Source: a virus. Taken from it: a stretch of 64,000 bases of DNA. The notes below the pieces were generated by a model, which ran no database searches, had not been told where the DNA came from, and saw only the letters and a program-made list of their open reading frames with translations. Location: the IMG/VR virus record IMGVR_UViG_3300037485_000225, positions 1 to 64,000 of that record, one strand, 5' to 3'. Positions 37,102 through 52,916 of this stretch are shown in pieces (within the stretch, counting starts at the first letter, position 1; each line of letters starts with the position of its first letter). Made by a program: the position numbers and the translations under genes.

Positions 37102-39753
37102 ATGGCTTCATTTACAGATCAAATATCACAATTTAACCCCTACATTCAGCAACTCCCAGTTGATGCTATGGTTAAAGTGGGCATGCAAAAGCAGGCTCAG
37201 TATGACCAAGGTGTGCAAAAAATTCAGGGCTATATAGATAATATAGCTGGAATGGATGTTATGCGTGATGTGGATAAACAACATTTACAATCTAAACTTA
37301 ATGAATTAGGTGGTAGATTAAGAACTGTTGCTGCTGGAGATTTCTCTAATGCTCAATTAGTTAACTCAGTAGGGGGGATGGCTACTCAAATAGTTAAAGA
37401 TCCTTATGTACAAGCTGCTGTTCAATCAACAGCAAATGCTAGAAAGCAACTTAGTTTGGTAGACCAAGCTAGAGAAAAGGGAGAGTTAACTCCTGACAAT
37501 GAGTGGTTTTTTACGGAGAAACAACTTAATAAATACCTATCTAATCCTAGTCTTGCAGGAGAAAAGAATAGTCCTGTAGTGTTTAATGGTAAATACATTA
37601 AGCATTATGATGTAGATAAAGATATACAAGAAGCTATTGGAAAAGCCCATTTAAGTTCAGATGAATGGGAAGAGAATGCTCTTAATGCAGATGGTAGTGT
37701 GAATTCAGATATTCTTATAGAGAAAGCAAAGAAGGGATTGTTAAGTGGAAAGGTTAAAAGTATAGTTGAAAGTGTATTTTCAAAACCAGAGGTGCAACAA
37801 CAGTTAGCTATTACAGGTACCTATCAGTTTAAAGACTACACTCCTGAGATGTTAAAAGGTGTACAGGATGAAAGTATAAACTATATTAGAAATAAAGCAA
37901 AAGAGAACAGAGACAGAATTGCTTGTGTTGGAGTTATTTCTGATTATGAAGCAGCAAATGCAAATAAAGCAATAATTAATATTGATAATCAACTACAATC
38001 TTCAGAAGAACAGTATGCTAAATACATGAAGCTGTTAAATGAAGGAAAGATTGATGAAGCAAAGATATCTTTATATAGAGATAATAAAGAAGCACAATAT
38101 CAAACTGATTACTCTTGGGAAGAGAACTCTATGAAATCAAAGGTGAATCCTTGGTTTACTGTGCAGATGACAAGAGCTAATTATAACTTAGCTGTACAGA
38201 AAGAAATATTTGATGAAGGAGATGCTAATAGAAAGTTTAATGAAGGAGTAAGACAGTTTGGTTTAAGCTATGGTTTACAATTAGAAGATGCTCAAAGAAA
38301 AAGAGATATTGCTAATAATAAGTTAAATCCTGATGGCAGTTCTAAAGTTATATATACAAAAGATCCAATTAACCCTGAGGAAGTAGCTAAAATAGGATCT
38401 CAGTCTTATAAAGCTAATATTCAAGTTTTAAAAGATCAGGCAAATCAGCTTCAAGCTAAGGTGATATCTACTCTTCCAGGATTTGAAGATTTGTATAGGC
38501 AAGATGATAATGGTGTATATAAGTTTAACTATTCTAAATATAAAGACTGGAAAACAATTGAACCAAAATATAAAATGGCTTTAGTGGAGTTAGAGAAAGC
38601 TCACATGAATGGTACAGTGAAACCTAACTACAGACAAGATGTACAACAAATACATGATTTACAATCATTGGTTTCTCTAAAAACTCAAACAGAAAAAGAA
38701 ATAGATGATAGGTATAAACCACTAGTAGATAAAATAGCTAATCAAATATCAGATCCTAAACCTATATATGGTAAATCTACTATGCCTATAAGTAAAACAG
38801 ATATGGTTAATGTTTGGCTTGCTGAAAATAGTACAGATCCACAAACAGCTAAAACAGCTAGAGATTACATAAATACAAAATATGGTAAAGGAGGGGGAGC
38901 ATTTGGTGATAAAAAAGCAGATGCAGTAATATTTCTTTCTGGAATTTATAAAGATTCATTCAAACAAATAGATAAAGTAATGAGTGATAATCCTGGTTTA
39001 GCACCTATGTTTGCAAATAGAGAAAAGGATTATAAAAAAGTACAACAACAAAATGGAACTTGGTATGCTACTATTAATGAAGGAAAACCTGAAGGTAAAT
39101 TATTAGTAAACCAAAAGTATAGTGCTCTTTTAGCTAGAGTGATGGGAGGTGAAAAGACAGGAGGTGTCTATGGAAAAATGGCAAAGATGTTATCTGCTAA
39201 AGAACCTAGTGAGTTAAATGAAAACTTATATGGTTATTTTAGAGGGCAAGATGGTCAATTTTATGCACAAATTAGAAGAAACTTAGGATCTGGTGAAGGA
39301 TATGAATACTCTGAAATGTTACCAATTGCACCAGAAGAAGCTGCTGAATTAGGAGCAAAAACAGATCCACTTGAAGATGCTTTCAATTCAAAGTTTGGTG
39401 GATATTTAAATAACTTTCAAGGAAAACAAACTGCTAAAAATTTAATATCTCCAGAAGCAGAGAATGCAGCAATTAATAGAAGATCTGTAGGTCAATATTC
39501 TGTAGGTTTTCAATTAAAAGAATTGAATGGTGGATATGTTCCATATTTATATGTTAGAGATAGAAATGGAAATGTTCTATCTAGTGGAATGGAACTTGAT
39601 TTTTCAGTGTATTCAAAAGATCCAAGATTAACTCCTATACAAAGAGAACGTTTTAAAGACGTACAATCTATAATGAGTAAAGCAGATGTAGTTACTAAAC
39701 TACCTCTAATAGATGAGAATCTTATAACATTAATGTTAAATAACAATAGATAA
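37102..39753 (+). CDS. large coiled-coil virion protein (883 aa)
   Basis: Continuous ORF whose stop overlaps the start of the giant gene (ATAATGG). Confidence 0.5.
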   Translation: MASFTDQISQFNPYIQQLPVDAMVKVGMQKQAQYDQGVQKIQGYIDNIAGMDVMRDVDKQHLQSKLNELGGRLRTVAAGDFSNAQLVNSVGGMATQIVKDPYVQAAVQSTANARKQLSLVDQAREKGELTPDNEWFFTEKQLNKYLSNPSLAGEKNSPVVFNGKYIKHYDVDKDIQEAIGKAHLSSDEWEENALNADGSVNSDILIEKAKKGLLSGKVKSIVESVFSKPEVQQQLAITGTYQFKDYTPEMLKGVQDESINYIRNKAKENRDRIACVGVISDYEAANANKAIINIDNQLQSSEEQYAKYMKLLNEGKIDEAKISLYRDNKEAQYQTDYSWEENSMKSKVNPWFTVQMTRANYNLAVQKEIFDEGDANRKFNEGVRQFGLSYGLQLEDAQRKRDIANNKLNPDGSSKVIYTKDPINPEEVAKIGSQSYKANIQVLKDQANQLQAKVISTLPGFEDLYRQDDNGVYKFNYSKYKDWKTIEPKYKMALVELEKAHMNGTVKPNYRQDVQQIHDLQSLVSLKTQTEKEIDDRYKPLVDKIANQISDPKPIYGKSTMPISKTDMVNVWLAENSTDPQTAKTARDYINTKYGKGGGAFGDKKADAVIFLSGIYKDSFKQIDKVMSDNPGLAPMFANREKDYKKVQQQNGTWYATINEGKPEGKLLVNQKYSALLARVMGGEKTGGVYGKMAKMLSAKEPSELNENLYGYFRGQDGQFYAQIRRNLGSGEGYEYSEMLPIAPEEAAELGAKTDPLEDAFNSKFGGYLNNFQGKQTAKNLISPEAENAAINRRSVGQYSVGFQLKELNGGYVPYLYVRDRNGNVLSSGMELDFSVYSKDPRLTPIQRERFKDVQSIMSKADVVTKLPLIDENLITLMLNNNR

Positions 39754-42700
39754 TGGCTTTACCTACTAAAGAAACATTGCAGAACGCAGAGCGTGTAATA
39801 CCAGATGCTACTGAACGTACACTTGTAGAATATCCTTCAAATATACCAAAGTTTCAAATGAACTTAGAAACTGCAACTGGTGGAGGAAATCAACAAAGTG
39901 ATGCTTATAGTAGGGCATTGTTATTAGCTTCTCCTACAAAACCATCTAACTTAACTTCATCTAGTACATTTAGTTATAATCCTTTACAGATAGATACAAG
40001 TGGTAGATATGATAGATTTATATTAGGACAAGATAATGAAGACATTCAAGGTAAGTTACAGTCTGGTTGGGATCAAGCAGCAAATGGTCTTGTTAAAGGA
40101 TTAGGTATTGCAGGAACCACTTTCTTAGATGGTACTGTAGGATTGATAGCTGGATTAACTTCATCTATTGCTAATGGTTCTCTTAATAAATTTTATAATA
40201 ATGACTTTACAAACTATATGGATAGTTTGAATAAGTCTATGGAGAATAAACTTCCTAACTATTACACTGCATCTGAAAGAGATGCTAAGTGGTATGAGGC
40301 TGAAAACTTGTTTACTGCTAATTTCTTCTGGGATAAAATTATTAAGAATTTAGGATTCTCAGCAGGTGCTATTGGAGCAGGTGCTGTTACAGCAGGATTG
40401 TTATCAAAAGTTCCAGCATTGTTTGGTATATCTAAAGCTGGTAAGCTTGCACAAGTGGCAGATGCTTTAGAAGTTGGATTAAAAGGTGTTCCTGAAATAG
40501 AGCGTGCAGCAAAAGCTGCAGACATTATTGCACAAACATCTAAAACTATTAACACATTAAACAAGCTTTCATCAGTAGATAGAGCAGTTGTTGCTGGATT
40601 AAGTGCTGCTACAGAAGGTGGTATTGAAGCATTACAAGGATTAAATAGTTATAGAGATAAGTTAATTGCACAATATCAAGATACATATGGTGAATATCCT
40701 CCAGAGGATGTATTAAATAAAATTAATAATAGAGCAGAAGATCTAGGTAATGCTAGATTTGGTTTGAATGTATTGTTGCTATCAGCAACTAACTATATTC
40801 AACTTCCAAGAATATTAGGTTCTTCTTATCGTTCTGGTAAGAATACATTAATTAATTCTGCAAAAACCAATCTTGAGACAGGGTTATTAGAATCCTCTCT
40901 TCCTACAAAAGGTATTGGTAAAGCTTTATATAAAGCAAGGAATGTAGCTAGTTTATTCTTTTCTCCTACTGAAGGATTTGAAGAAGGAGCACAATATGCT
41001 ATTGAGAGAGGAACACAATCTTATTATAATAAAAAGAACTATGTTAAAGATGAATCTTTAGGTAGTTTTATAAATAGTTTTTCAGAGGCTGCTGGTGAGG
41101 GTATTAAAGCTGTAGGTGATAAAGAGGGTATGGAATCAATTTTAATTGGTGCTCTATCTGGAGGTATACAACAAGCAGGCTTTGTAGGAATGTACAAAAA
41201 TGAACAGGGTAATAATAGAGTTGGTATTGGTAAAGGTGGAGCAATAGGTGAAAGAGGATTTACAGGCTATGGTGGAGAGATGGCTAAAAACACAGAAGAT
41301 CTTATCAAACAATCAAAAAGATTCTCTCTTAAAGGAGATGAGTGGTTAAAAGATACAAAAGCTGGTGTTAAGAGAGGAGTTGTTTTACAAGAAGAATTTG
41401 ACCAACACGTAAGAATAGGAGATGTTCTTGAGGCTAAAGATACTGAATTTGATTATCAACATAACTACTTACTACCACGTATTAAATATGGTAGATATGA
41501 TCTTGTTAAAGATGATATAGATTATTATAAAGGATTAGCTTCTACACAAGAAGGATTTGATGAATTAAAGAAGAAAGGCATTGCTTCTGAGTTAGACACA
41601 CAACAAAGTTTTATAGATAGAATTGATAACTTTGCAGAACATGCTAAGGTGGTTAATTCATTGAATGAATCTTTGAATCTTAGATATGCAGGAGTTGTAT
41701 ATAAAGATACAAACAAAAGAGCTTATAGCGATGATGCTATTGAGCAAATGATATATGCTGCAGCAAAGATATCTGATTATGATAAGCGTGTACCACAGTT
41801 AACTGACAAGTTAGTTGCTGCTGGTATTGTTGTATCAAATGTACTTGATGATATTATTTCAGAAGGTCTTCCAAAAGAAGAAGTGGTAAAACAAGCTATC
41901 AATGATATTGATAAACTTGATGTGATAGAAGATGTTAAAGTTGAGTTAAAAGAAAACTTAAGAGATGCTGTAGAACTTTCTATAAGAAGAAAAGACTTCA
42001 TAGATGAGTATTCTAATATTAAGAAAAACCCTGCTAAGTACACTGAGGATAAAGGTGATAAACCTTTAAATACTAATGTACAAACTGTTAAGATTGTTAC
42101 CAAAACTGGTGAAAAGGATATTGTTGTAGGAGAAGAACTATTTTTAGGAAACACTGTCAAATACACTTCTAAGGGTGAAGAGGTTCGTGGGTTCCCTAGA
42201 TTAACTATTCTTGGAGAAAATGAAGATGGTAGTATTAAGATTAAAGACTCTAATGGTGATATTAGAGATATATCTAAAAGCGAGTTAGCTGATTATAAGT
42301 TAAGTAAGGTGAGTGATACATTAACTAATAAAACAGCTGCGTATTATTTAGCTCATGTTAATGATGTATTCCAATATAACTTTGGTCAAGCAAGTGAGGA
42401 TAAGAAAAGACCAGGTAGATTAGAATATGATAATGGTAAATTATTCTTTGTATATAAAAACTATAAAGGAGAAATTAAAAGAAAGCAAATTGATAACTCT
42501 CACTTTATAGCTCAAGAAGGATTTAGAGATGCTAGAATAAAGACAGTGGGTACACTCACTGCTGAATCTGCTGAGAAAAAAGCAGCTAGAGAAGCATTTA
42601 CATCTGCTGAAGAATTAAAGAAGCAACAACAAACCCTTGCTCAAAATAGAGATAATCGTTTAGAGATTATTACAGAATTATCTAATGAGCATATTGCTAA

Positions 42701-45700
42701 ATTAGAAGCTATTGAGAAAAAGCTAGAAGCTAAGAAAGAACAATTACAAAAAGTTACAGAAGATTTAGAAGAACTTAAGACATTAGAAAAGAGAGACTTA
42801 TCTGGTAACATTATAGTTCGTCCTTTTAACACTGTCCTTTCTAAAGCTATGAGAGGCATTAGTACATTGAATAATACTAAGGATGCTTTAGAAAAAGAGA
42901 TAGCTGAGTTAACTGCAGACAAGGATGAGTTAGAATTTAACATAGCTTATTTTGAAGACTTTAAACAAAACTTAGATGAGCTTCCAGAAAACTCTGGACA
43001 ATTCTTAGAAGAGTTGAAGTTTCAAATCCTTATTGCTGAAGAGTTACGTGATAAAACACAAGACAATATTAAGTCATTAGGTGGTATCATTCAAAAGATT
43101 GATAGTGCTATTAAAGACTTCACTCAATTATTAAAGGATGCCTTTGCTAAATTTGACCAAGACTATCCTAGTTATATCAAAGATGAATTTGAAAGAATCA
43201 TTAATGAAGGAAGTACCCTATCTGATCTACCTTCACTTAAACAGTTTATAGCTGATTATGTATTATTGAATGATACTAAAAAAGAGATATCGCTAAATAA
43301 AGAAAAGGTAAGTAAGTTAAGTGATGAGATTAATGATTTGTTTAAAGACTTTATTGAAGTACAAAAAGACTATGATGCTAAGAAACTTATATTAGATAAG
43401 TTCCAAGAGGTAGCTGATAAGTATAGACAAATGAAAGCTGAAGAGGATGTCTTGAAAAAGGATAAAGCTTTACAAAACGTTATTGATCAAAGTGCTGATA
43501 AAGGAATTCAAACTGTAGAACATAATAAGCCTTTTGAGGCTATGCCTAAGAAGTCAAATGAGAAGATACCAAATTCTACAGTGGCTCCTGTGCAAGGACT
43601 TTCTCAAGAGAGTGAATTAGCAGAACATCATGTTCGTGCTAATAAGTTTGGTGTTAATTTTTATGACCTTCCTGGACATGAGAACTTTCGTGGTGTAATT
43701 GTCACTTCTGAAAATGAATCTCAATTAGGACTAGGTGGTACTATGGTAGATGGTGAGTATGTTGGTGGATTAATGAATCATTTAAAAAATGCAGGAATTA
43801 ATCCTGAAGATGTTGATTCTAAAAGAACTATAGCTTTAGTTATGGTGAGTGTTGATCCTAACAATGGAGAGAAACATCTTATTGGAGTTGATGGACAAAG
43901 ATTAGAATCTCCTACAGTGGATAATGCAATCTATCAAGTATTCCCTGAGAATATAGATAGAATGTTCAGAGATGATGTAGATGATGATACTAAAAAGCAA
44001 ATCATTGATGATTATAGAAAATGGAGAAATGAAACAATAGCTAACCCAATTAATGATGCTCATGAAATAGAAGCATCTTTTGGAGTTCCTGACTATGTAC
44101 AAAGAGTCTTAGAGAATGGTGATAGTGAGAGAGACTATGAAGCAGATGGTGTTCCTGTATCAGATTCTGCATTACTTACAGAAGAAGATATTAGAACAAA
44201 GAGAGTGGTGGGAATACCTACAACTGATGGTGCTCAAACAAGAGGGTCTGTTACATTTAATAATGTAAAAGGTTTGCCTTTATTGTTTACATCTAATGGT
44301 ATGGTTAGATTAAGAAACAGACAAATCAATAATGAAGAAGCAACATTAATACATAAAGTTTTAGTTGAGCTATCTGATATATTATATGACCCTAAATATA
44401 AGAATTGGCAGTCTCCTAAAGCTCAAGCTTTACTTAACTGGTTAAAATCAGTTTCATATTGGGGTACACCTAAAGATGCAGAAGGTAATAGAAAGCCTGC
44501 AGGATATAATAGCATGTTTGTTGAAAACATGGAATTAATTATGTCTGAAGATGAAACTATTAGATTTGCATTCACTCCTTCAAATATTAGAGATAATAAA
44601 GATGCAATTATTGCAGAGATAGAGAAGCTATATGGTAATGTAAACTCTACAATGGTTACAGGTGGTAAGTCTGGAGAATGGAATAAACCATATGTACAGA
44701 TTACTAATATTGCTGAAGATGGATCTATTGAAACAAAGACTTGGAAAAACTACCAATCGTTCTTGTTATCTAAAGTTGATCCTGATGGAAAACCTAGAAT
44801 TGCTAAAGAGATTCCTTTAACAACTCAAATTAGACCTGTAAAAGATGCTAATGATGTTAATAGAAAAGGTGTATACTTTACAGTTACAGATAGGAATAAT
44901 GCTGATACAGAAGCTGTTGAGGTGAGTCCTACAGCTGCTACAGTTACACAAACCACTCCTTATGGTACAGAAGCTGGTCCTACATTAACCACTTCTACAG
45001 AGTCTGTAGATAAGAAAGCTGATATAGAAAGAAGAAGACAAGAAGAGTTAGATAAATATAACTCAGGAGATATTACAGTAGCTGGAGTTAAAGCTATTAA
45101 TGATAAATATAATGCAGAACTAGCTGCTTTAGAAAGTGGTAAAACTGCAGCTCCTGTAGCTACACAAACTACACCTACAACTAGTTATGTATTTGATAAT
45201 AAAACACAAAATGTTGTTACATTTCCTAATCTAGGACCTGTATCTTTCATATTAGATTTAAACAAATATAATAGTAGTGAACGTAAAGAAGGTATTGCTA
45301 TGGCTGTTCCTGACACAACTTTAGAAAACATGGTTGTTAAGTTGGTGAACAATAGTGCACAAAGTGGTATCACTCAAGATAGTCCTGAAGAACAACAAAA
45401 TGCTCTTGCTGAAAATGTATTGAGAGCTCTTGTTAAAAAAGAAATTGATAAACAATTAAATGCACAGGTGGTAGCTCCTACAGTAGTACTTCCTGTTACA
45501 GTAGAACAAGAAAGACAAGCTGCTGAAATAAGTGTTATTGATTCTAGTTTACAACAAAAGATTAATCAAGTTGCTGCTCAAGGTGATACAGCTATGAGTA
45601 GTCAATATAGAATTAAGTTAGTTGAAACATTTAAGAAGTTTCAGAAAGAAGACTGGTCTAAAGTGGAAACTTGGTTAAAAGCTAATTTTCCTAATATACC

Positions 45701-48700
45701 TGTATATAGAGTGAAGAACATGATTCAAGCTACCAATGGTAGACAAGCTTGGGGTATGCTTCATGATGGTGCTATCTACCTATCTGCAGATAATGAAATA
45801 GGTACAGTGTACCATGAGGTGTTTGAAGCTGTATGGAAAATGTTTACCACTCCACAAGAAAGAGCTAAGGTTGCTAAAGAATTTAGAGCTAGAAAAGGAT
45901 CTTTTATTGAAAGAGAAACTGCTGATGAAGTTAAGTTTGCTGATGCTACAGATGCTCAAATGAAAGAGCAATTAGCTGAAGAGTTTAGAAATATGAGTTT
46001 AACTGGTAAGAATGTGGGTGTTGCTACAGAAGGTATGTCAACTACTCGTAGAATCCTTAATGAAATTTGGGAAGCTATTAAAGCATTCTTCACTGGAGAT
46101 AAAGCTCAAACAAACACAGCCAATCTATTTGATAGAATTGGTAATGGATTTTATAAAGAATATATTCCAGAAGAAGCAGGATTATCTTTTGCTAATAGAG
46201 GATTTATTGATATAGAAGATGCTGTTGGTAATGATGATTCTGAGTTTAGCTTAGCTGTATTTTCAGGTGAGCAGATTCATGATATCATTCAACATATGAC
46301 ATATACATTGGTTAAGGACTTATTTTCTACTAACCAAGGATTGTTTGAAATGCGTGATGAAAAGAAAAAGGATGTCTATGCTAGATTGAAACAAGAGATG
46401 GAACTTTTAATGGCTCAGAATATTGTTTCTATCAGTAAAATAACAAATGAAAAACTTTCAGAAGAAGATAAAGCTGATAAAATTAAAAACTTTAGACAGT
46501 TAAATATTTTGATTAACTTAAACTGGGATTTGTTACAAGAGAAACATGAAGAATATATCAAGTCTTATTCTATACAGTTTGATGAAAACGATGGCTCTAT
46601 TAGAACAGATGAAGATAATGATGGTAAAGGAACTATGTATGGTGATGCTAATAAGATAGATGTATTTAAAAAAGCCAACAGTGCTATTAAAATACTATTA
46701 GCAAGCTTACCTGTAGTGGATGTTAATGGTGATCCTCTACCATCTTCTATAGGTGGATTCTCATTAATACCTATGAGTGAGGTGTTTATTTCTGTAATGA
46801 ATAACACTCACACTGCAAAGAACATTGATGAAATGGTTGCTGATATCCAAGATATGGCTAAGAATGATATCAGATATCAAAAGCTATTCAATCGTATTAC
46901 AAAAGGAAAGAATATAGAAGACTTTGATAATGAAGAAGATATTAAGTTATTAACTGCATTATGGGCTACATTTAAAAAGCAATCTCCTGATGTAAAGAAT
47001 GTATATATATTAGAGAATGGTGATATACAGGTGGGAGATTCTAACTTCTCTACAGCTGCTAGACAAGTGAAACAAGAATTTGTTAATGATATTAAAAAGT
47101 CTATTTCTAATGGCAGTAAATACTTTAGATATTCTGAAAAAGCTGGAGCTTTTGTTGGAGAAATAGATAGTATTAATGATGTTAAACTTAACAGTTTACA
47201 AGCTCAGGTTAATTTCATGAAGGATTTAGGTATTGACTTTGATTATAAGAAGTTAGTTAAGATGCCTGAGAAAGGTATGTTCTCTATAGCTGTTAATGGT
47301 ATTAGAGAAAGTATTTCTAAAGCTAATAAGATTATATCATTCAATGGTCAGGCTCTTTCTATTGATGGTAGATTACGTCAATTATCTGAGATTAAGGCTA
47401 AGATGGATAACCCAGAGTTCAGTAGTACATATTATAATGTAAAGGGTGAGCTTACACAAACATTTATTGGTACCAATGCTGCTAGTGATTTATATAACAC
47501 TCTATCACAAATAAGCAACATTAGTGAACTACAAGGTACTCAGTATGAATACCTTCTCACTGATACATTTGCTAAGAATTCTACTTTATTAGGCTTAATG
47601 TTTGATTTAGTTACAGGAAAGCGTATTGAGGGTTCTAATAATTATATGAAGACTGGTTATGCTGATGGTGTTGTAGACCAAGAAACTGGTAAACAAAAGC
47701 AATCTTCTAAGCTTAATTCTAGAGAAAGAATGATGCAAGAGATTAACTTAAACCTATCAGGATATTATTTAAACCTTATTCCTGGAGATTCATCTATTGA
47801 ATGGATGATGTACATGGGTAATAAGATTAAGCCTGATGATTTATTATTAAACAGACAAGCAATATTTGATGTATTCAAAGGATATTTTATTGATGAATTA
47901 AATCTATCTAGAGAAAATCGTAAAGTGGTTGAAGGTAGAAATTCTAAAGACTTAAGATTCTTTAAAAACATTCTTGGGGAAAAGGTACATAATGATATCA
48001 TCACTGAAAAAGGAACAGCAGAAGAAATATATGGTGATTATGAAAAGAAAATCAACACTGCTTTAAATAAATTCTTTGATACACAAAGAGAGGTGTTAAA
48101 GAACACTCTATCTGATTTCAAATTAATAGAACAATATGAGAACACTTGGGTATCTGAAAGTTTAAATTTTGATAAGAAAGAGTTTACTAATGAGACATTA
48201 GATATACAATTAGATGCTCTTAATGCTAGCTTTGCTATTAACAATATCGAGTTACATAAGTTATTATATTCTGATCCATATCAATATGCAGATGAGTTAA
48301 AGCGTATTAAAAGCTTTAGTTCCCCTAGACAAGCTATTATCAATGGTTCAATAGCTTTAAACAAAGCTTTCCAAAAAGTATGGAACAAAGCATTTAAACC
48401 AGGAGAGATTGGTTATACAAACTTTGAAAGAGACTTCTTTAGATCAACCACACTAACTGAAATTATGGGGATTGATGATGCAGGAATGTATGATGCCTAT
48501 AAAGAAGGTGATGGTGGAGGTATGATTTCTTTAAATGCTTTACGTAATTTTAAAATACGTGCAAGTCAATGGGATAGTGGACAAGAAAGACAATATAAAT
48601 ATGATGTAGCTTGGGAAAAGCAATACAAGTTTTATAAGAAGGTTAAGGGTGTATCTTTAAATGCACAAGATAAAAAGATATTAGCTAAGGGTAATCCAAA

Positions 48701-51700
48701 TATTAAACGCACATACACTCCAATTAAACCAATTGTAGCTGGTGCTAAATTAAGTAACAATACTTGGAATGATATAATATTAGATAAATTCTCTCTTTAT
48801 CCATTGTCTTTCAGGGTGTTACATGAAATTAACACTAACACTAATAAGCCTACATCTAATGCTCTTAAGATGTATGAGAAGATGCAAGCAGAAGATATTG
48901 ATTATGTAGTATTTGAAAGTGCTAGAAAGGTGGGAGCTGAGGAAACACATGATGTATATAATGAAGAAGATGGATCATTTAATGATCGTCCTTTTCAAGG
49001 GGTTATTCAAGTTCCATTTGCTATTATAAGTATACAATCTGAAGTTCCTTCTCATGAAGATGGGTTGGTAACAAGAGGATCTCAAATGACTAAATTAGCT
49101 ACATTAGACTTCATGGAAGCTGGTATACCTGTTGATTTTGTACATAATGATAGTGTAGAATTCACCACTAAGAGATATGAAGCTTGGTATAATTTATCAG
49201 AAGTAGATAGAGAAGCAGCATCTCCTTTATATAAAGAGATTAAGAATAATCAAAATCTATTAGAAGAATTAATGGAGATAGGTATTGAATCTTTAGCTAA
49301 TAGATTTGATATTAAAATAATTAAAAATTTAGATAAGGATGGTAAAGTTATTAGAAGTTTTGAGTTAGGTGACATTAAAAAAGTGGCTACTACATTACAA
49401 AAAGAACTTACAAAGAGAGAAATTAATGTTAATATTAGTGAGGCTTTAAAAGACTATAAGTCTGGAAGTGTTGTAATAGAAGCTACTCCTGCATACAGGC
49501 AGATTAGAAATGTTCTATATTCTATTGCTGACAGAGAAGTGATATCTCCATCAATGCCTGGTGGAATGCTGGTACAAATCACTTCTTCATTATTAGAGTC
49601 TGTAAAAGCTAAGAAAGTAACCATCAATGGTAAGACAGGATATACATCTGATACATTAAGTTTTTATAAGAAAGATGGTAAACAAGTCTGTGGAATCATG
49701 GTGGCTAGATGGTTTGATAGCAAAAAGACTGATAAAGAACTATTAGATGAGTGGTATGATACAGACAAAGATGGTAACAAAACTCTTACAGAAGAGGGTA
49801 GAAAAATTCTATCTGGTGTAGCATTTCGTACTCCAACACAAAAGCAAAACTCAATGGAGAGTTTTGTTATTGAAGGATTTCTTCCTAGGGAGTTTGGTGA
49901 CTCTGTTGTTGTACCTTCAGAATTAGTTGCTAAGGTTGGATCTGACTTTGATATAGATAAATTAAGTATATATTTAAAAAATGTACTTGTAAACAAAGAA
50001 ACTGGTGAAGTTAAACTTATGCCTTACAAAGGAATAGGTAAAGCTGCTAGAGATACATTTAACAATGTAGATGATTATAAAAAGTCTTTGGAGAATGCTT
50101 ATATTGAATCTTTACAGAATTTAATATCTAATCCTCTAAACTATGATAAATTAGTTACAGCTAACTCAGCTAAGCCATTAGAAGATTTAGCTAAAGAAAT
50201 TACAAAGAAAGTAACAGGGGTAGAATTTGACTATAAGTCAGTTGACAATATGTTAAGTAGAACTTATATGTCTGAATTAAGACATGCGTTTGTAAATGGT
50301 AAACAAGCAATTGGTGTTGCTGCAGTGAATAATACAAATCATTCATTAAATCAACGCTCAACTATTTATATTGACTTAAATAAATTAGTCAATATGAGTA
50401 AGCAAGATCAATATTGGTTAGGTGATGGTAAGCTTAAGTTTAAGAAGTATAATACAATTAATCTAAATGGTAGTTCTGTTGCTACATTATCAATGATTAA
50501 AAACAAGGCAGGAGAACTTATTTCAGATACTCTTGGTATGTTCATTGATGGATATGTAGATGTTACTAAAAATGGTCCATGGATTATGCAATTAGGTGCA
50601 ACACCTAGTGTAGCTTCTACATGGATGTTCTTAACAAAGATTGGTGTGCCTATTAGAACCACTGCTTATTTCATGAATCAACCTATTGTTCGTGACTATC
50701 TAAAACAATTAGAAAATCAAGGAACTTCATGGTTATTCAACAATAGTGTTATGTCAGACATGTACATCAAGTATGCAACTAATTCAAAATTAGAAATTGA
50801 AGAATTACCTTCTGAGAAAGAATTAGGTGAGATGGTTGGTAAGACAGACCTAACTGCAGATGAGAAAAAGCAACAACAATTCATATTGGGAGAATTCTTA
50901 AAGTATGCTAAGATGGCTGAGCATATGTTCTTAATGATTCAAGGAACTAACTTTGATACAGCATCTTTCAATGATCCATATTTAATAACTAAAAAGTTAG
51001 TTCAATTAGAAAAGGCTAGAAACACTCTATTCTCTTCTGCAGATGATTTATTAAATAGTTCATTTATTGGTAAGCTTAGCAGAATTATTATTGAATTAAG
51101 AGAAGCCCTATCTAAAATTCTTAAATCTGATGAAGGTAAAATTAGAGAGGTTGTAGAAGATGTTCTATCTAACTATACAGATATGAACGATAGAGACTTT
51201 ACAAGGACTGCTCAAAGAGTTGTATCTACATTATTTGATTGGGCTGTACAAACTGATAAAGGATTAAACGCTCAAATTACAGAAGCTTTATTATCTAAAG
51301 ACAATACAGCTAAAAAGATTACTGATTTCATTGAGCCTATTATAGCTCCTGGAAGCACACATCCTTTAGCTAACAACCACGTAATCAAGATATTAAAACC
51401 TGAATTTGCTGATAAGATTAAAGGAAAACAAGCAAACAACTTAAGTCTTGTTAATAAGGGCAATAAGGTGTATGACCAAAACCAAATCATCTATTCATTT
51501 AAAGAGTTGAAAAACTATTTAAATAGTGTAAACAATCTTGAGTTGTATGATAAGTTAGTCACTCTTGCTGTATTACAATCTGGTCTATCAGAAAACAAGT
51601 TTTCATTTACATCTCTACTTCCTTATGAAGATACTAAGGCTATATATAATAATGTCTTAGCTGATTTACAGGAGATGCCTACATTAAGAAACTTTGCTGA

Positions 51701-52916
51701 CTTAAATGTATTTGAAAGAAACTATTGGAACTATGATGACATTGTTAAGAATAGAAGAGCTAGAGTTTCATTTAATTGGGAAACTAACTCATATGAGTAT
51801 AATAAAAATATGGAATTTAGTGGTGCTGATTATGTATCTCCTATTACAGTTGCAATAAAAGAAAAAGCTATTCCTCAATTAATAAAGCTAAGTACATTAG
51901 CTAGAGAAGCTAATAGTGATGTATTTGTATACACTTGGAAGGAAATCCCTAAAGGAAGAACAGAAGCCCAAATGAAAAAAGAAGGTGATTTTTCTTATAT
52001 TAAGAAGGGATTGTTTAAGAAGGTGTATAAAGATGGTGTTGCTTTAGAAGTTAAAGGTGCAGGCAAAGCTGTTAATTATATATACAAAATGATTAATGCT
52101 TGGGGAGAAGGAATAAAAGCTAATGAGTTTTATACAACAGGACAAAAGTCTGTAATAGATAATGGTTTTGAGAAGACAAATGAAATGGAAGATAAGGTGA
52201 TTACACCATACTTTGATCGACAAATTTCAAAAAAAGTTGTATCTTCACAACCTATGACTGGTATTATGGATTTAACAAGAGATGAACTATTAGAAGACTA
52301 TAGTCAAACTACAGGTCTTCCTGTGGGAACTACTATAAATTTTCAAGAAGAACCTACATCAGGATATAGAAATAGAACAATTAAGAATGCAAGTGCTGAT
52401 GCAACTATTGCATTAGCTCATGATTTTAATTCTGCTGGTGAAAAGTTAACTAAGTCTTCTGTATTAAATCAAAATAAGAAATATATACCTTTAACTATTC
52501 CTAGAAAGACAGAAACTTCTGATATTAATAAAGCTGATATAAGAACTCAAGTTAATATTGTAGTAGACCAATTAAATTCAGTAAATGCTAAAACATTGAA
52601 CATAGCAGGAAATGGTATATATACTATGAGAGATGCTGGATGGAATCAAGAAGAAGTAGATTTGATGACTTATAGAATATTAAAAGGTGTTGTAGAATCT
52701 CCTAATCTTAAGAATAAAATAGTTTCTCTTAGAACTGGTGGACAAACAGGATTTGATGAAGCTGGAGCTAAGGCTGGAATTAAATTAGGAATACCTACTA
52801 CTATACTAGCTCCAAAAGGCTGGACATTTAGAAACATAGCTGGTCAAGATATTTCTAATGAACAACAATTTAAAGCTAGATTTGGTAAATCTGAAGAAGA
52901 TCCTTTTCCATGTTAA
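39753..52916 (+). CDS. giant (4387 aa) multidomain protein with a two-barrel (DPBB) RNA polymerase core; probable virion-packaged, ejected RNAP
   Basis: Uninterrupted 13.2-kb ORF. Near aa 3340-3405, FRTPTQKQNSMESFVIEGFLPREFGDSVVVPSELVAKVGSDFDIDKL lines up with the beta-prime/Rpb1 catalytic barrel [43 protein letters not shown]. Shared residues are R.PT...SM..F, IEG, P..LV.A and D-F-D-x-D. Upstream near aa 2985-3095, IKPIVAGAKL...LYPLSFRVLHEI...VTRGSQMTKLATLDFMEAG resembles the beta-subunit barrel GDKMAGRHGNKG...LNPLGVPSRMNIGQILE...GGQRFGEMEV. The N-terminus has two Gly/Ala-rich hydrophobic segments. The C-terminus has a DprA/SLOG-like motif. Confidence 0.7.
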   Translation: MALPTKETLQNAERVIPDATERTLVEYPSNIPKFQMNLETATGGGNQQSDAYSRALLLASPTKPSNLTSSSTFSYNPLQIDTSGRYDRFILGQDNEDIQGKLQSGWDQAANGLVKGLGIAGTTFLDGTVGLIAGLTSSIANGSLNKFYNNDFTNYMDSLNKSMENKLPNYYTASERDAKWYEAENLFTANFFWDKIIKNLGFSAGAIGAGAVTAGLLSKVPALFGISKAGKLAQVADALEVGLKGVPEIERAAKAADIIAQTSKTINTLNKLSSVDRAVVAGLSAATEGGIEALQGLNSYRDKLIAQYQDTYGEYPPEDVLNKINNRAEDLGNARFGLNVLLLSATNYIQLPRILGSSYRSGKNTLINSAKTNLETGLLESSLPTKGIGKALYKARNVASLFFSPTEGFEEGAQYAIERGTQSYYNKKNYVKDESLGSFINSFSEAAGEGIKAVGDKEGMESILIGALSGGIQQAGFVGMYKNEQGNNRVGIGKGGAIGERGFTGYGGEMAKNTEDLIKQSKRFSLKGDEWLKDTKAGVKRGVVLQEEFDQHVRIGDVLEAKDTEFDYQHNYLLPRIKYGRYDLVKDDIDYYKGLASTQEGFDELKKKGIASELDTQQSFIDRIDNFAEHAKVVNSLNESLNLRYAGVVYKDTNKRAYSDDAIEQMIYAAAKISDYDKRVPQLTDKLVAAGIVVSNVLDDIISEGLPKEEVVKQAINDIDKLDVIEDVKVELKENLRDAVELSIRRKDFIDEYSNIKKNPAKYTEDKGDKPLNTNVQTVKIVTKTGEKDIVVGEELFLGNTVKYTSKGEEVRGFPRLTILGENEDGSIKIKDSNGDIRDISKSELADYKLSKVSDTLTNKTAAYYLAHVNDVFQYNFGQASEDKKRPGRLEYDNGKLFFVYKNYKGEIKRKQIDNSHFIAQEGFRDARIKTVGTLTAESAEKKAAREAFTSAEELKKQQQTLAQNRDNRLEIITELSNEHIAKLEAIEKKLEAKKEQLQKVTEDLEELKTLEKRDLSGNIIVRPFNTVLSKAMRGISTLNNTKDALEKEIAELTADKDELEFNIAYFEDFKQNLDELPENSGQFLEELKFQILIAEELRDKTQDNIKSLGGIIQKIDSAIKDFTQLLKDAFAKFDQDYPSYIKDEFERIINEGSTLSDLPSLKQFIADYVLLNDTKKEISLNKEKVSKLSDEINDLFKDFIEVQKDYDAKKLILDKFQEVADKYRQMKAEEDVLKKDKALQNVIDQSADKGIQTVEHNKPFEAMPKKSNEKIPNSTVAPVQGLSQESELAEHHVRANKFGVNFYDLPGHENFRGVIVTSENESQLGLGGTMVDGEYVGGLMNHLKNAGINPEDVDSKRTIALVMVSVDPNNGEKHLIGVDGQRLESPTVDNAIYQVFPENIDRMFRDDVDDDTKKQIIDDYRKWRNETIANPINDAHEIEASFGVPDYVQRVLENGDSERDYEADGVPVSDSALLTEEDIRTKRVVGIPTTDGAQTRGSVTFNNVKGLPLLFTSNGMVRLRNRQINNEEATLIHKVLVELSDILYDPKYKNWQSPKAQALLNWLKSVSYWGTPKDAEGNRKPAGYNSMFVENMELIMSEDETIRFAFTPSNIRDNKDAIIAEIEKLYGNVNSTMVTGGKSGEWNKPYVQITNIAEDGSIETKTWKNYQSFLLSKVDPDGKPRIAKEIPLTTQIRPVKDANDVNRKGVYFTVTDRNNADTEAVEVSPTAATVTQTTPYGTEAGPTLTTSTESVDKKADIERRRQEELDKYNSGDITVAGVKAINDKYNAELAALESGKTAAPVATQTTPTTSYVFDNKTQNVVTFPNLGPVSFILDLNKYNSSERKEGIAMAVPDTTLENMVVKLVNNSAQSGITQDSPEEQQNALAENVLRALVKKEIDKQLNAQVVAPTVVLPVTVEQERQAAEISVIDSSLQQKINQVAAQGDTAMSSQYRIKLVETFKKFQKEDWSKVETWLKANFPNIPVYRVKNMIQATNGRQAWGMLHDGAIYLSADNEIGTVYHEVFEAVWKMFTTPQERAKVAKEFRARKGSFIERETADEVKFADATDAQMKEQLAEEFRNMSLTGKNVGVATEGMSTTRRILNEIWEAIKAFFTGDKAQTNTANLFDRIGNGFYKEYIPEEAGLSFANRGFIDIEDAVGNDDSEFSLAVFSGEQIHDIIQHMTYTLVKDLFSTNQGLFEMRDEKKKDVYARLKQEMELLMAQNIVSISKITNEKLSEEDKADKIKNFRQLNILINLNWDLLQEKHEEYIKSYSIQFDENDGSIRTDEDNDGKGTMYGDANKIDVFKKANSAIKILLASLPVVDVNGDPLPSSIGGFSLIPMSEVFISVMNNTHTAKNIDEMVADIQDMAKNDIRYQKLFNRITKGKNIEDFDNEEDIKLLTALWATFKKQSPDVKNVYILENGDIQVGDSNFSTAARQVKQEFVNDIKKSISNGSKYFRYSEKAGAFVGEIDSINDVKLNSLQAQVNFMKDLGIDFDYKKLVKMPEKGMFSIAVNGIRESISKANKIISFNGQALSIDGRLRQLSEIKAKMDNPEFSSTYYNVKGELTQTFIGTNAASDLYNTLSQISNISELQGTQYEYLLTDTFAKNSTLLGLMFDLVTGKRIEGSNNYMKTGYADGVVDQETGKQKQSSKLNSRERMMQEINLNLSGYYLNLIPGDSSIEWMMYMGNKIKPDDLLLNRQAIFDVFKGYFIDELNLSRENRKVVEGRNSKDLRFFKNILGEKVHNDIITEKGTAEEIYGDYEKKINTALNKFFDTQREVLKNTLSDFKLIEQYENTWVSESLNFDKKEFTNETLDIQLDALNASFAINNIELHKLLYSDPYQYADELKRIKSFSSPRQAIINGSIALNKAFQKVWNKAFKPGEIGYTNFERDFFRSTTLTEIMGIDDAGMYDAYKEGDGGGMISLNALRNFKIRASQWDSGQERQYKYDVAWEKQYKFYKKVKGVSLNAQDKKILAKGNPNIKRTYTPIKPIVAGAKLSNNTWNDIILDKFSLYPLSFRVLHEINTNTNKPTSNALKMYEKMQAEDIDYVVFESARKVGAEETHDVYNEEDGSFNDRPFQGVIQVPFAIISIQSEVPSHEDGLVTRGSQMTKLATLDFMEAGIPVDFVHNDSVEFTTKRYEAWYNLSEVDREAASPLYKEIKNNQNLLEELMEIGIESLANRFDIKIIKNLDKDGKVIRSFELGDIKKVATTLQKELTKREINVNISEALKDYKSGSVVIEATPAYRQIRNVLYSIADREVISPSMPGGMLVQITSSLLESVKAKKVTINGKTGYTSDTLSFYKKDGKQVCGIMVARWFDSKKTDKELLDEWYDTDKDGNKTLTEEGRKILSGVAFRTPTQKQNSMESFVIEGFLPREFGDSVVVPSELVAKVGSDFDIDKLSIYLKNVLVNKETGEVKLMPYKGIGKAARDTFNNVDDYKKSLENAYIESLQNLISNPLNYDKLVTANSAKPLEDLAKEITKKVTGVEFDYKSVDNMLSRTYMSELRHAFVNGKQAIGVAAVNNTNHSLNQRSTIYIDLNKLVNMSKQDQYWLGDGKLKFKKYNTINLNGSSVATLSMIKNKAGELISDTLGMFIDGYVDVTKNGPWIMQLGATPSVASTWMFLTKIGVPIRTTAYFMNQPIVRDYLKQLENQGTSWLFNNSVMSDMYIKYATNSKLEIEELPSEKELGEMVGKTDLTADEKKQQQFILGEFLKYAKMAEHMFLMIQGTNFDTASFNDPYLITKKLVQLEKARNTLFSSADDLLNSSFIGKLSRIIIELREALSKILKSDEGKIREVVEDVLSNYTDMNDRDFTRTAQRVVSTLFDWAVQTDKGLNAQITEALLSKDNTAKKITDFIEPIIAPGSTHPLANNHVIKILKPEFADKIKGKQANNLSLVNKGNKVYDQNQIIYSFKELKNYLNSVNNLELYDKLVTLAVLQSGLSENKFSFTSLLPYEDTKAIYNNVLADLQEMPTLRNFADLNVFERNYWNYDDIVKNRRARVSFNWETNSYEYNKNMEFSGADYVSPITVAIKEKAIPQLIKLSTLAREANSDVFVYTWKEIPKGRTEAQMKKEGDFSYIKKGLFKKVYKDGVALEVKGAGKAVNYIYKMINAWGEGIKANEFYTTGQKSVIDNGFEKTNEMEDKVITPYFDRQISKKVVSSQPMTGIMDLTRDELLEDYSQTTGLPVGTTINFQEEPTSGYRNRTIKNASADATIALAHDFNSAGEKLTKSSVLNQNKKYIPLTIPRKTETSDINKADIRTQVNIVVDQLNSVNAKTLNIAGNGIYTMRDAGWNQEEVDLMTYRILKGVVESPNLKNKIVSLRTGGQTGFDEAGAKAGIKLGIPTTILAPKGWTFRNIAGQDISNEQQFKARFGKSEEDPFPC

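Follow-up and report, generated by a model that had tools for sequence, protein, structure and literature searches.

No phages are more abundant in the human gut than the Crassvirales, whose hallmark is a giant virion RNA polymerase (RNAP). Little of this protein outside its catalytic part has been explained. The proteins gp65, gp66 and gp67 of phi14:2 and gp47, gp49 and gp50 of crAss001 were found in the virions of these phages (gp47/49/50: PMC10172136), and a crAss001 particle is estimated to contain only about six copies of every RNAP-associated protein (PMC10172136). Giant polyproteins of the gp65/66/67 type are also known from crAss-like phages (10.1101/2020.03.07.982082; PMC10136315). 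Virion RNAPs of the N4-like type occur as polyvalent proteins fused to ART, MPTase or lysozyme domains (Iyer et al. 2017, PMC5512222), and a role in ejection was proposed for the hydrophobic N-terminal part of the N4 enzyme (PMC13434306). Most viral SLOG domains stand alone, and only sporadically is one fused to an HTH, HNH, exonuclease, helicase or guanylate kinase domain; for those of the YpsA clade, the prediction is that they detect or break down immune signals derived from ADPr (Iyer et al. 2022, PMC9503650). No mention of crAss-like phages or of virion RNAP fusions was found in that survey. Here we describe a SLOG module embedded in a virion polyprotein.

The window analysed is a stretch of 64,000 nucleotides (positions 1 to 64,000 of the IMG/VR virus record IMGVR_UViG_3300037485_000225), and all features given below lie on its + strand. 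One unbroken frame at 39753..52916 encodes a protein of 4387 aa, for which a look-up by exact sequence gave no recorded match. The ATG of this frame and the stop codon of the upstream ORF overlap (TAATG), and the next ORF begins 15 nt past its own stop. TerL, portal, MCP and tail genes are located upstream, and downstream of these structural genes the giant gene sits in a transcription block beside gp65-like and gp67-like parts. The order is the same as in phi14:2 and crAss001, namely tail/cargo genes, gp67-like gene, RNAP gene and gp65-like gene; in contrast to phi14:2, the gp67-like part and the RNAP are fused here, and the gp65-like protein is separate. The latter, an RNAP-associated virion protein of 1659 aa (52931..57910), is the next ORF, and its N-terminal 92 aa are 38% identical to phi14:2 gp65. 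A motif scan detected no HExxH zincin motif in the giant protein or in this neighbour, whereas phi14:2 gp65 has HEIMH. The giant ORF is probably the cargo polyprotein of a crAss-like phage, a 'transcription block' protein made of a gp67/gp47-like part, a gp66-type RNAP and a SLOG module. In blastp and tblastn, the gp47/gp67 type accounts for aa 97-760 and 1889-2083, the gp66 RNAP for about aa 2917-3740, and the module for aa 4176-4380. The sequence-only reading had placed hydrophobic segments, a coiled-coil-like stretch, an RNAP core and C-terminal motifs in one giant protein; every peptide that it quoted was recovered in place, and the comparison with crAss-like cargo and RNAP proteins that it had proposed revealed the homology to the gp66 and gp67/gp47 types.

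The catalytic core of the RNAP was assigned by homology to aa 2917-3740 (48501..50972), and the enzyme would be a two-barrel virion RNA polymerase with two double-psi beta-barrels in a single chain. It contains the metal-binding catalytic motif DFDID at aa 3398-3402 (49944..49958) in the context GSDFDIDK, and the same local context is present at aa 1361 of gp66 (D1361), at aa 1679 of PhiCrAssBcn2 gene 81 and at aa 3331 of the cr10_1 giant protein. The core aligned with aa 1169-1656 of phi14:2 gp66 (7.8e-14 and 3.2e-5 by blastp, 9e-10 by tblastn), and it also matched PhiCrAssBcn2 gene 81 and the cr10_1 giant protein (blastp) and the locus L006. Only about 21-26% of the residues are identical to gp66. 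The gp66 structure was missing from the matches at E <= 1 when the whole protein was compared with the PDB chains by phmmer, and the RNAP homology is therefore taken from tblastn and blastp. The shared motif and the core homology thus confirm the proposed RNAP and relate it to phi14:2 gp66, whose companions are gp65 and gp67, and to the crAss001 set gp47/gp49/gp50. However, neither phi14:2 gp66 nor crAss001 gp50 has the C-terminal SLOG module of the giant protein.

The region preceding the core is of the gp47/gp67 type. A poorly conserved leader (aa 1-84, 39753..40004; alignments A2 and A3) is predicted to be disordered, with pLDDT < 50 for aa 1-85. It is followed by a conserved all-helical domain (aa 85-760, 40005..42032), supported by phrog_32390 (4.6e-25), tblastn, blastp and the same alignments, and common to the crAss001 gp47-type and phi14:2 gp67-type virion proteins and to structural proteins of the Cellulophaga phages phi4:1 and phi17:2. 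In blastp, this domain matched PhiCrAssBcn2 gene 78 at 2e-34 and gp67 at 5e-4. The stretch aa 978-1212 (42684..43388), rich in E/K/Q/L and poor in Pro/Gly, is coiled-coil-like and lies above the 99.5th percentile of shuffles by a crude heptad score. A second block of similarity (aa 1889-2083, 45417..46001) matches the C-terminal part of the gp47-type protein (PhiCrAssBcn2 gene 78 aa 2018-2205, 7.5e-11 by blastp) and marks approximately the junction between the gp67/gp47-like part and the RNAP; the alignment with the RNAP gene of L006 starts at aa 1960. Searches of the N-terminus and of the whole protein with Pfam, PADLOC and NCBIfam gave no match except cpYpsA. The matches to EAD10, UL31 and EspJ were weak and far under the cut-offs, and were disregarded.

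Two Gly/Ala-rich segments of the N-terminal domain had been read as typical of channel-forming ejection proteins. The first, GLVKGLGIAGTTFLDGTVGLIAGLTSSIANG (aa 112-142, 40086..40178), lies within a predicted helix (105-141), and the second, NLGFSAGAIGAGAVTAGLLSKVPALFGI (aa 199-226, 40347..40430), within the predicted helix 189-218. Their Kyte-Doolittle 19-mer maxima (1.43 and 1.47, respectively) are under the classical threshold of 1.6, and their insertion dG values, about +4.9 and +3.6 kcal/mol on a scale that is approximate in absolute values, compare with 2.9 +/- 1.8 reached by shuffles of the giant protein. The hydrophobicity of the two segments is no more than chance for so long a protein, and hydropathy was rejected as evidence for transmembrane (TM) helices. 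The segments are nevertheless considered real because their position and sequence are conserved in homologs. Segment 1 carries the conserved motif KGxxxAGTTFLxGTxGLVYGL, and N199, G201 and G205 (GxxxG) are invariant in segment 2; G134 and these three residues are invariant in 9 sequences, and the last three also in 19. Equivalent hydrophobic segments occur in phi14:2 gp67 (aa 91-109 and 172-190) and in PhiCrAssBcn2 gene 78 (aa 106-124). Both are conserved and predicted as long helices at moderate pLDDT, in an AF2 model of aa 1-780 (19 sequences) that is of low confidence overall (pLDDT 57.9, pTM 0.42). A Foldseek search of this model against the PDB returned nothing (best E 0.5, TM <= 0.12), and so does not connect it structurally with T7, N4 or any further ejection proteins. 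As in the membrane-inserting ejection proteins (T7 gp14-16, N4 gp51/gp52/vRNAP-NTD, crAss001 gp45), the position of the hydrophobic segments is conserved in the family, and a hydrophobic N-terminal part is shared with the N4 vRNAP model (PMC13434306). The N-terminal part probably has a role in packaging or ejection, and possibly makes transient contact with the membrane. The strongest TM-like segment of the block is a glycine zipper (aa 351-393, KD 1.87) in an upstream ORF of 1066 aa (33815..37015), which matches Gly-zipper families of Pfam slightly under the cut-off and has an equivalent segment in PhiCrAssBcn2 gene 76. This ORF precedes the RNAP-block genes, as does the crAss001 cargo protein gp45.

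The C-terminal end of the protein is a discrete SLOG-superfamily module of about 185 aa or 555 nt (aa 4194-4379, 52333..52889), joined to the RNAP by a linker (aa 4087-4193, 52011..52332) that is also present in the cr10_1 giant protein (cr10_1 aa 4089-4422 against aa 4087-4377: 33% identity, 2e-32 by blastp). The module belongs to the cpYpsA family: the PF12694 profile gave 28.5 bits with the whole protein and 38.8-40.9 bits with the module, against a gathering cut-off of 26.2, and its fold agrees with the solved cpYpsA member 3imk. The label 'putative molybdenum carrier protein' of 3imk is a legacy name. In phmmer, the whole protein gave a weak, split match to 3imk (E 0.22). The native module matches the cpYpsA model in two swapped stretches and, when artificially re-permuted, in one single stretch (profile positions 3-125); it therefore represents a differently permuted subfamily with the same fold. 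The GGQTGxD beta-alpha-beta unit is C-terminal in the module and N-terminal in the Pfam model and 3imk, and this swapped order is common to the whole phage subfamily phrog_10774. The GxD/E substrate-binding signature of the YpsA clade (PMC6459960) lies within GGQ[TS]GxD and reads RTGGQTGFDE in the module. G160, G161 and D166 occur in all of 45 family members, and G164 and E167 in at least 90% of them.

The motifs LNIAGNGIY ... KIVSLRTGGQTGFDEAGAKAGIKLGIPTTILAPKGW, found within the last 110 aa, had been attributed to a DprA/SLOG-like domain. The SLOG half of this assignment stands, since cpYpsA scores above the gathering cut-off and the fold is that of 3imk; the DprA half does not, as DprA (PF02481) matched the module neither by profile nor by fold. 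The LOG family carries the motif PGGxGTxxE, to which GGQTGFDE is similar, not identical, and the suggested LOG check yielded no match of the module to the LOG profile of Pfam at E <= 10.

The module behaves differently from the polymerase to which it is attached. Nucleotide identity of 86-92% is limited to nt 52333-52889 and is shared with phages whose RNAPs are 22-32% identical, whereas in the closest relative overall (L018) the module is only 70% identical in nucleotides and 63% in amino acids. The most similar module protein (84% aa identity) is encoded in L006 by a gene of its own (285 aa), which lies 120 nt downstream of the RNAP gene and precedes a 1932-aa gene in whose region the similarity to gp65 lies. 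In 54 of 80 IMG/VR loci the RNAP and the module are in frame, the RNAP preceding the module in 41 of them and following it in 13. Furthermore, 72 of the 150 best cluster representatives reach at least 2000 aa; 61 of these 72 contain D[FY]DxD, and at least 61 have the module fused in frame to the RNAP at a varying position. The module can be C-terminal, internal or N-terminal to the RNAP, or a separate gene. Among the cultured crAss001-like isolates it is an insertion polymorphism: a clean insertion of about 196 aa sets PhiCrAssBcn2 gene 81 apart from crAss001 gp50, and PhiCrAssBcn4 has an unrelated insert at that site. The module is present in PhiCrAssBcn1/2/3/20/25 and absent from the other isolates (e.g. 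Bcn13-19, 21-24) and from crAss001, their RNAPs being otherwise near-identical; the PhiCrAssBcn isolates with and without it share the host strain Bacteroides intestinalis DSM 108646. These data show that the module is exchanged horizontally between phages, and we read it as an accessory cassette that does not belong to the polymerase proper. The sequence-only reading had held the fusion to be undescribed. Giant polyproteins had already been published, and the same RNAP-SLOG fusion lies unannotated in GenBank (cr10_1 and the PhiCrAssBcn isolates) and in dozens of metagenomic protein clusters; the claim keeps its force for the SLOG module on crAss polyproteins, for which the literature on crAss with YpsA, SLOG or molybdenum, and on cpYpsA, gave no relevant account, Yutin et al. 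2018 and its supplements aside.

The partners of the module family all process nucleotides or ADPr: members are fused to NADAR, DUF4326 and NT5C, the latter 5'-nucleotidase forming viral two-domain proteins with them, and their neighbours include NADAR, Nudix and CTP_transf_like. The associations with NADAR, Nudix and NT5C are those of copies that stand alone. In giant phages, it is located beside nucleotidyltransferase, Nudix and RNA-repair genes (2H-SAK, HAD_SAK, RNB). NADAR, DUF4326 and Nudix are also the partners in the viral SLOG network of the same YpsA clade, for which early deployment against nucleotide-derived host signals was predicted (PMC9503650). Stand-alone copies also occur in the widely studied phage ICP1 (gp146), in phiPMW and in giant phages, where the surrounding genes are early genes or serve DNA metabolism and RNA repair and are not virion genes; virion delivery is therefore not intrinsic to the module family. 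Homologs that appeared 'cellular', on contigs of 150-640 kb, proved to be giant-phage genomes and gave no bacterial context. PADLOC and NCBIfam provided no family match for the module, and nothing was found that ties it directly to Thoeris or to another particular defence system.

On balance, we favour a model in which three fused parts form a cargo polyprotein that delivers a mobile SLOG effector at the start of infection. Judging from the virion homologs, the polyprotein would travel inside the capsid and enter the host by ejection, either before the DNA or together with it; there the gp66-type two-barrel RNAP would transcribe the early genes. The polymerase polyprotein would serve as the vehicle, so that a few copies of the module would already be in the cell when infection begins. 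The module is most likely an effector acting on a nucleotide or ADP-ribose derivative; it would bind, and probably cleave, a small molecule such as an NAD+/ADP-ribose derivative (e.g. cyclic-ADPR-type immune signals) or a nucleoside monophosphate. Catalysis is favoured over a sponge because the copy number in crAss001 is estimated at only about six. The phage would probably benefit by pre-empting a nucleotide-based host defence or by reshaping the nucleotide pool.

The module always accompanies the RNAP block rather than other virion proteins, in nearly every case fused to the RNAP gene or next to it and not to other cargo genes, and its role could instead be linked to transcription. It might act in cis as a sensor, a nucleotide or ADP-ribose-type ligand toggling the attached RNAP as the SLOG domain of ThsA toggles its SIR2 effector. 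SLOG domains are ligand sensors in Thoeris ThsA (PMC9503650), Iyer et al. suggest sensing for SLOG domains fused to nucleic-acid enzymes as well (PMC9503650), and activation is thought to be necessary for gp66. However, the variable position of the module relative to the RNAP, the near-identical RNAPs with and without it, and the close stand-alone homologs (50-67% identity) that function without any RNAP argue against such a coupling. No co-evolved interface is expected if RNAPs only 22-32% identical exchange the module, and its many invariant polar residues suit catalysis as well as binding. We give a cis-acting sensor a small but real chance.

We regard as unlikely a nucleotide-pool or RNA-end enzyme that would aid early transcription instead of acting against immunity, either as a nucleoside-monophosphate N-glycosidase similar to LOG/PpnN or as an enzyme of NAD-type 5' caps. 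The NT5C fusion and the nucleotidyltransferase, Nudix and RNA-repair neighbours in giant phages would agree with such an activity, as would the resemblance of GGQTGFDE to the LOG motif. Enzymes of the LOG clade cut N-glycosidic bonds of AMP-type substrates (PMC9503650). However, no LOG profile matched at E <= 10, and the polymorphism among isolates of the same host points to an accessory, conditionally useful function, not to a core need of transcription.

Very unlikely is the initial proposal of one chain bridging envelope and genome, with an N-terminal membrane-spanning channel and a DprA-like C-terminus that binds ssDNA and loads onto the entering DNA. DprA does belong to the same SLOG superfamily, and its order of motifs is mirrored locally by the module (beta(NIAGNG)-helix-beta(GGQTGxD)-helix-beta); the hydrophobic helices near the N-terminus are also conserved in the family, and the N4 vRNAP was modelled as a membrane-spanning NTD, RNAP and CTD (PMC13434306). 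Nevertheless, cpYpsA is the best match by structure and by sequence, the family context of DprA/Smf differs, and nothing points to DNA binding by the module, whose partners are small-molecule nucleotide enzymes and without which near-identical RNAPs manage. The N-terminal hydropathy is sub-threshold and inside the expectation from shuffles, and in crAss001 the TM helix was predicted in the cargo protein gp45 and not in the RNAP-associated proteins (PMC10172136), a candidate of that kind being encoded by the upstream ORF of the window. Finally, an assembly or annotation artefact, in which a stop codon was lost or the contig is chimeric, so that a small gene such as that of L006 became joined to the RNAP gene, is highly improbable given the continuous frame, the 54 independent in-frame loci, the 61 or more giant cluster representatives, the GenBank genomes that include cultured isolates, and the linker shared with cr10_1.

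The delivered-effector model can be taken one step further, although only tentatively. Capsids may be pre-loaded with a mobile SLOG enzyme, spliced into the ejected RNAP, that destroys a nucleotide-derived immune signal (e.g. Thoeris-type cyclic ADP-ribose isomers) or another NAD+/ADPr-derived molecule before any phage gene is expressed. The insertion site would then be a landing pad for interchangeable anti-defence cassettes, a possibility raised by the unrelated insert that PhiCrAssBcn4-type phages carry at the same site.

The giant protein has the traits of a polyvalent protein: it is large, multi-domain and associated with virion genes, and it combines a carrier with a module variable in presence and position. 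Polyvalent proteins and the N4 vRNAP are likewise giant, injected and multi-domain, with variable effector domains carried by a virion RNAP (PMC5512222, PMC13434306). The two RNAP lineages are unrelated, however, the N4-like enzymes being T7-like and single-subunit and the giant protein two-barrel and gp66-type, and the effectors differ (ART/MPTase versus SLOG). If the favoured model is true, crAss-like phages would be tied to the NAD+/ADP-ribose arms race, for which the literature searched gave no crAss counter-defence, and the natural variants with and without the module among the cultured crAss001-like isolates would offer a ready-made test system. A conserved SLOG module would be a frequent mobile passenger of giant virion RNAPs, and the polyvalent-protein idea would stretch from the N4-like RNAPs to an unrelated two-barrel lineage. 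The 'extra' mass of these polyproteins would then have a definite purpose, namely to deliver accessory effectors.

The giant protein of 4387 aa is encoded by one unbroken ORF of the window (39753..52916, + strand). Its ATG overlaps the stop of the upstream 883-aa ORF (TAATG), the next ORF (52931..57910) begins 15 nt past its own stop, and the large ORFs of the window are all co-directional. Upstream lie the large terminase (3378..5414), the portal (5414..7993) and the major head protein (9941..11494), together with a collagen-like tail fibre protein and large virion proteins. Collagen-triple-helix-repeat proteins are encoded at 58064-61921 and 61948-63660 (+ strand; Pfam 5.6e-102 and 1.9e-33) and at 16770-19466 (collagen-like tail-fibre PHROGs); in these genes the local GC content reaches 0.39-0.43, against about 0.33 for the genome. 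Translation of the giant ORF recovered every peptide quoted in the sequence-only reading at its reported position.

A tblastn search of 50,697 phage records with aa 2501-3500 gave matches to crAss-like phages and their relatives only, among them uncultured phage cr108_1 (8e-18) and Cellulophaga phage phi14:2, whose g066 is annotated as 'catalytic RNA polymerase subunit' (21% identity, 9e-10). By local blastp, aa 97-760 and 1889-2083 matched PhiCrAssBcn2 gene 78, of the crAss001 gp47 type (2e-34 and 7.5e-11), and aa 130-482 matched phi14:2 gp67 weakly. Further along, aa 3194-3648 matched aa 1169-1656 of phi14:2 gp66 (7.8e-14 and 3.2e-5), aa 3022-3736 matched PhiCrAssBcn2 gene 81 (gp50-type), and the C-terminal module (aa 4176-4380) matched aa 62-260 of the same gene 81. 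The catalytic motif GSDFDIDK is present at aa 3398-3402, and its local surroundings match those at aa 1361 of gp66; together with the gp66 homology, the motif bears out the RNAP core proposed from the sequence alone. ORF 52931-57910 (+, 1659 aa) resembles phi14:2 gp65 in its first 92 aa only, which are 38% identical to the gp65 N-terminus. Since the gene order in phi14:2 is g067, g066, g065, this map shows the giant ORF to be a fusion of gp67-like and gp66-like proteins, followed by a separate gp65-like gene. No HExxH zincin motif was found in the gp65-like ORF; phi14:2 gp65 has HEIMH at aa 245. A hydrophobic segment near the C-terminus of this ORF (aa 1519-1537) has counterparts in phi14:2 gp65 (aa 1293-1311) and PhiCrAssBcn2 gene 80 (aa 1211-1230).

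In some phages gp65, gp66 and gp67 are fused as one huge polyprotein (Drobysheva et al., 10.1101/2020.03.07.982082), and a review of Crassvirales names RNAP genes reaching ~6000 aa as a hallmark of these phages (PMC10136315), so neither the giant size nor the RNAP core is new biology. The fusion had been put forward as undescribed. This holds only for the SLOG module on crAss-like RNAPs, of which we found no description; the giant ORF type, the RNAP core and the virion-protein fusion are already known.

The two Gly/Ala-rich segments of the N-terminus, previously taken as membrane-inserting, were confirmed at aa 112-142 and 199-226. Their motifs, KGxxxAGTTFLxGTxGLVYGL and FTANFxxDKxIKNLGFSxGA, are kept in nine homologs, among which G134, N199, G201 and G205 are invariant, the last three also in 19 sequences. 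Hydrophobic counterparts lie at aa 91-109 and 172-190 of phi14:2 gp67 and at aa 106-124 of PhiCrAssBcn2 gene 78. The two segments of the giant protein are only marginally hydrophobic. The Kyte-Doolittle 19-mer maxima (1.43 and 1.47) are under the classical 1.6, and the summed apparent insertion energies (+4.9 and +3.6 kcal/mol) fall within the minima of shuffled versions of the whole 4387-aa protein (2.9 +/- 1.8), so that hydrophobicity by itself is not beyond chance. An AlphaFold2 model of aa 1-780, built with 19 sequences, was all-helical and of low confidence (pLDDT 57.9), and placed the two segments within long helices (105-141 and 189-218). Foldseek gave no match with this model, nor did the N-terminus match any Pfam or PADLOC family.

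In crAss001, the TMHMM-predicted helix belongs to the cargo protein gp45, and gp45 and gp46 are the proposed channel formers (PMC10172136). Two genes upstream of the giant ORF, a 1066-aa ORF (33815-37015, +) holds a segment (aa 351-393, VGAIAGQLLIPIPGVGAII..., KD 1.87) that is more TM-like than any other in the block, and gives glycine-zipper Pfam matches slightly under the cut-off. Like gp45, it precedes the RNAP-block genes, and PhiCrAssBcn2 gene 76, the gp45 counterpart, has an equivalent segment. This ORF is a better candidate for a channel former than the N-terminus of the giant protein. In the N4 model, the vRNAP consists of a membrane-spanning NTD, the RNAP and a CTD, the crassvirus equivalents being explicitly left open (PMC13434306). 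This model makes the membrane proposal reasonable by analogy, and we regard insertion of the N-terminal helices as conceivable, though doubtful. The coiled coils also proposed gain support from a crude heptad score, which marks a coiled-coil-like stretch at aa 978-1212. 'Structural proteins' of Cellulophaga phages phi4:1 and phi17:2, whose genomes (145 kb) exceed the crAss-like records compared, share aa 85-367 (29% identity, 1e-20, tblastn). This conserved domain may thus have a wider distribution, as a virion or ejection module.

Across the whole giant protein, the sole Pfam family over its gathering cut-off was PF12694 cpYpsA ('circularly permutated YpsA SLOG family'), with 28.5 bits for the whole protein and 38.8-40.9 bits for the C-terminal module (cut-off 26.2). 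The module also matched phrog_10774, whose function is not known (3e-32, PHROGs). The DprA, LOG and YpsA models of Pfam gave no match to it even at E <= 10. The C-terminus had been described as DprA/SLOG-like: 'SLOG-like' is correct and 'DprA-like' incorrect, and we found no indication of DNA loading. Alignment with 44 homologs revealed about 25 invariant columns, many of them polar: R39, N43, E61, N114, N118, Q130, D134, D166, K171 and R207 (residue 1 is aa 4170 of the giant protein). The AF2 model of the module is confident (pLDDT 90.1, pTM 0.84). Both the Pfam cpYpsA model and 3imk matched the module in two swapped pieces. When the GGQTGxD beta-alpha-beta unit was shifted from the C-terminus to the front, positions 3-125 of the profile were matched without a break and with an unchanged score, and two stand-alone relatives (P0035 and P0036) behaved in the same way. 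The phage subfamily thus represents another circular permutation of the cpYpsA fold.

The module family is large and mostly viral. A word-indexed search gave 288 matches, mainly stand-alone proteins of 177-200 aa with 50-67% identity, and when 1.84 billion cluster representatives were searched exhaustively, 2,571 matched at E <= 1e-3 (610 at E <= 1e-30). The module is commonly found fused to giant RNAP proteins. The 80 closest IMG/VR loci include 54 in which module and RNAP homology share one open frame; the RNAP precedes the module in 41 of them and follows it in 13. Two loci encode the module as its own gene next to the RNAP, and about 16 have it as a small stand-alone or two-domain gene. 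Among the 150 best of the 2,571 representatives, 72 have at least 2000 aa; 61 of these 72 contain D[FY]DxD, mainly in a G-x-DFDxDK context, and the module follows the motif in 55 and precedes it in six. In GenBank, uncultured phage cr10_1 (Suoliviridae) has the module at the C-terminus of a 'hypothetical protein' of 4460 aa, and five cultured crAss001-like isolates (PhiCrAssBcn1, 2, 3, 20 and 25) have it close to the N-terminus of their gp50-type RNAP; other isolates, such as PhiCrAssBcn13-19, lack it. No Cellulophaga record was among the matches to cultured-phage records, and phi14:2 itself thus appears to be without the module. Two IMG/VR loci close to phi14:2 (L056 and L082, gp66 match 2e-162) carry a partial module in frame after the RNAP (query residues 99-210, 66% identity).

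Several observations show the module to be a mobile cassette. Nucleotide identity limited to the module (window nt 52333-52889) is 91.6% with loci L008/L009, 89.7% with L010 and 86% with L011 (the same locus as L006), and the RNAPs of these loci are only 22-32% identical to that of the window. The closest overall relative, L018, is 66% identical over 8.3 kb (RNAP HSP 48% aa); its module is only 70% nt and 63% aa identical. L006 encodes the module as a gene of its own (285 aa), flanked by the RNAP gene and the next gene (1932 aa), in whose region gp65 similarity is found. PhiCrAssBcn2 gene 81 and crAss001 gp50 have identical flanks, and gene 81 carries an insertion of ~196 aa after aa 61, bracketed by the repeated linker LSPAFEAP / LSNAFDTP, which may be a recombination footprint. 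The repeat reads KDEMIEALDKALSPAFEAP ... ERLSNAFDTPRISS (aa 62-80 and ~255-275); crAss001 has the linker-like KDEMIEALDKALSPSFEAPRIST in single copy. At the same site, the gp50-type RNAPs of PhiCrAssBcn4-12 carry an unrelated insert of ~115 aa (aa ~60-185 in PhiCrAssBcn4, OQ221539.1) without a Pfam match, and crAss001 gp50 has neither insert. The site thus looks like a hotspot of interchangeable inserts. Among cultured isolates the module is an insertion polymorphism; of their RNA polymerases the isolate paper mentions just 'a certain variability' (PMC10354031). The SLOG family itself is already known, as is the concept of ADPr-processing phage domains that are deployed early. In the open-access literature, we found no account of this module as a mobile addition that recurs on crAss-like virion RNAPs, of its alternative permutation or of this polymorphism.

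All fusion and neighbourhood partners of the module family are nucleotide- or ADP-ribose-processing. NADAR is fused in P0036 (6.9e-18) and DUF4326 in P0055, Nudix is a neighbour in phiPMW, and giant-phage neighbours include a CTP_transf_like nucleotidyltransferase (weak Pfam match) and the RNA-repair domains 2H-SAK, HAD_SAK and RNB. Beside the stand-alone SLOG gene of Vibrio phage RYC (AP014858.1), the gene at 3573-4022 is annotated as 'GTP cyclohydrolase II', wrongly, since it matches NADAR (Pfam 1.3e-22). Viral proteins of ~334-350 aa from five IMG/VR loci (L073, L075, L076, L078 and L086) join the module to a C-terminal extension of ~150 aa; the one scanned, from L075, contains an NT5C-type 5'-(deoxy)nucleotidase domain (1.8e-12), a fusion of which no mention was found in the literature searched. 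Vibrio phage ICP1 gp146 (3986-4525) is a stand-alone member that overlaps the end of the accessory-helicase gene helA (gp147, PIF1-like); being present in 72 Vibrio phage records, it offers a tractable model for the function of the subfamily. The nucleotide- and ADP-ribose-processing partners agree with the published contextual network of viral YpsA-clade SLOG domains, which are predicted to sense or cleave ADPr-derived immune signals and are typically stand-alone, crAss-like phages and virion RNAPs being unmentioned (Iyer et al. 2022, PMC9503650).

The specific attachment of the module to the RNAP block would fit a ligand sensor controlling the polymerase in cis. We consider this main alternative less likely: the variable position of the module, its presence or absence in near-identical RNAPs and its exchange between divergent ones argue that the RNAP polyprotein would be the delivery vehicle of the module rather than its co-evolved partner. 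The closest concept is that of the 'polyvalent protein', which already covers N4-like vRNAPs with a fused ART, MPTase or lysozyme domain (PMC5512222). From the homologs, we infer that such a vehicle would deliver the module with the virion. As the RNAP-associated proteins are estimated at only about six copies each per crAss001 virion (PMC10172136), a putative catalytic role of the delivered module is more plausible than that of a stoichiometric sponge.
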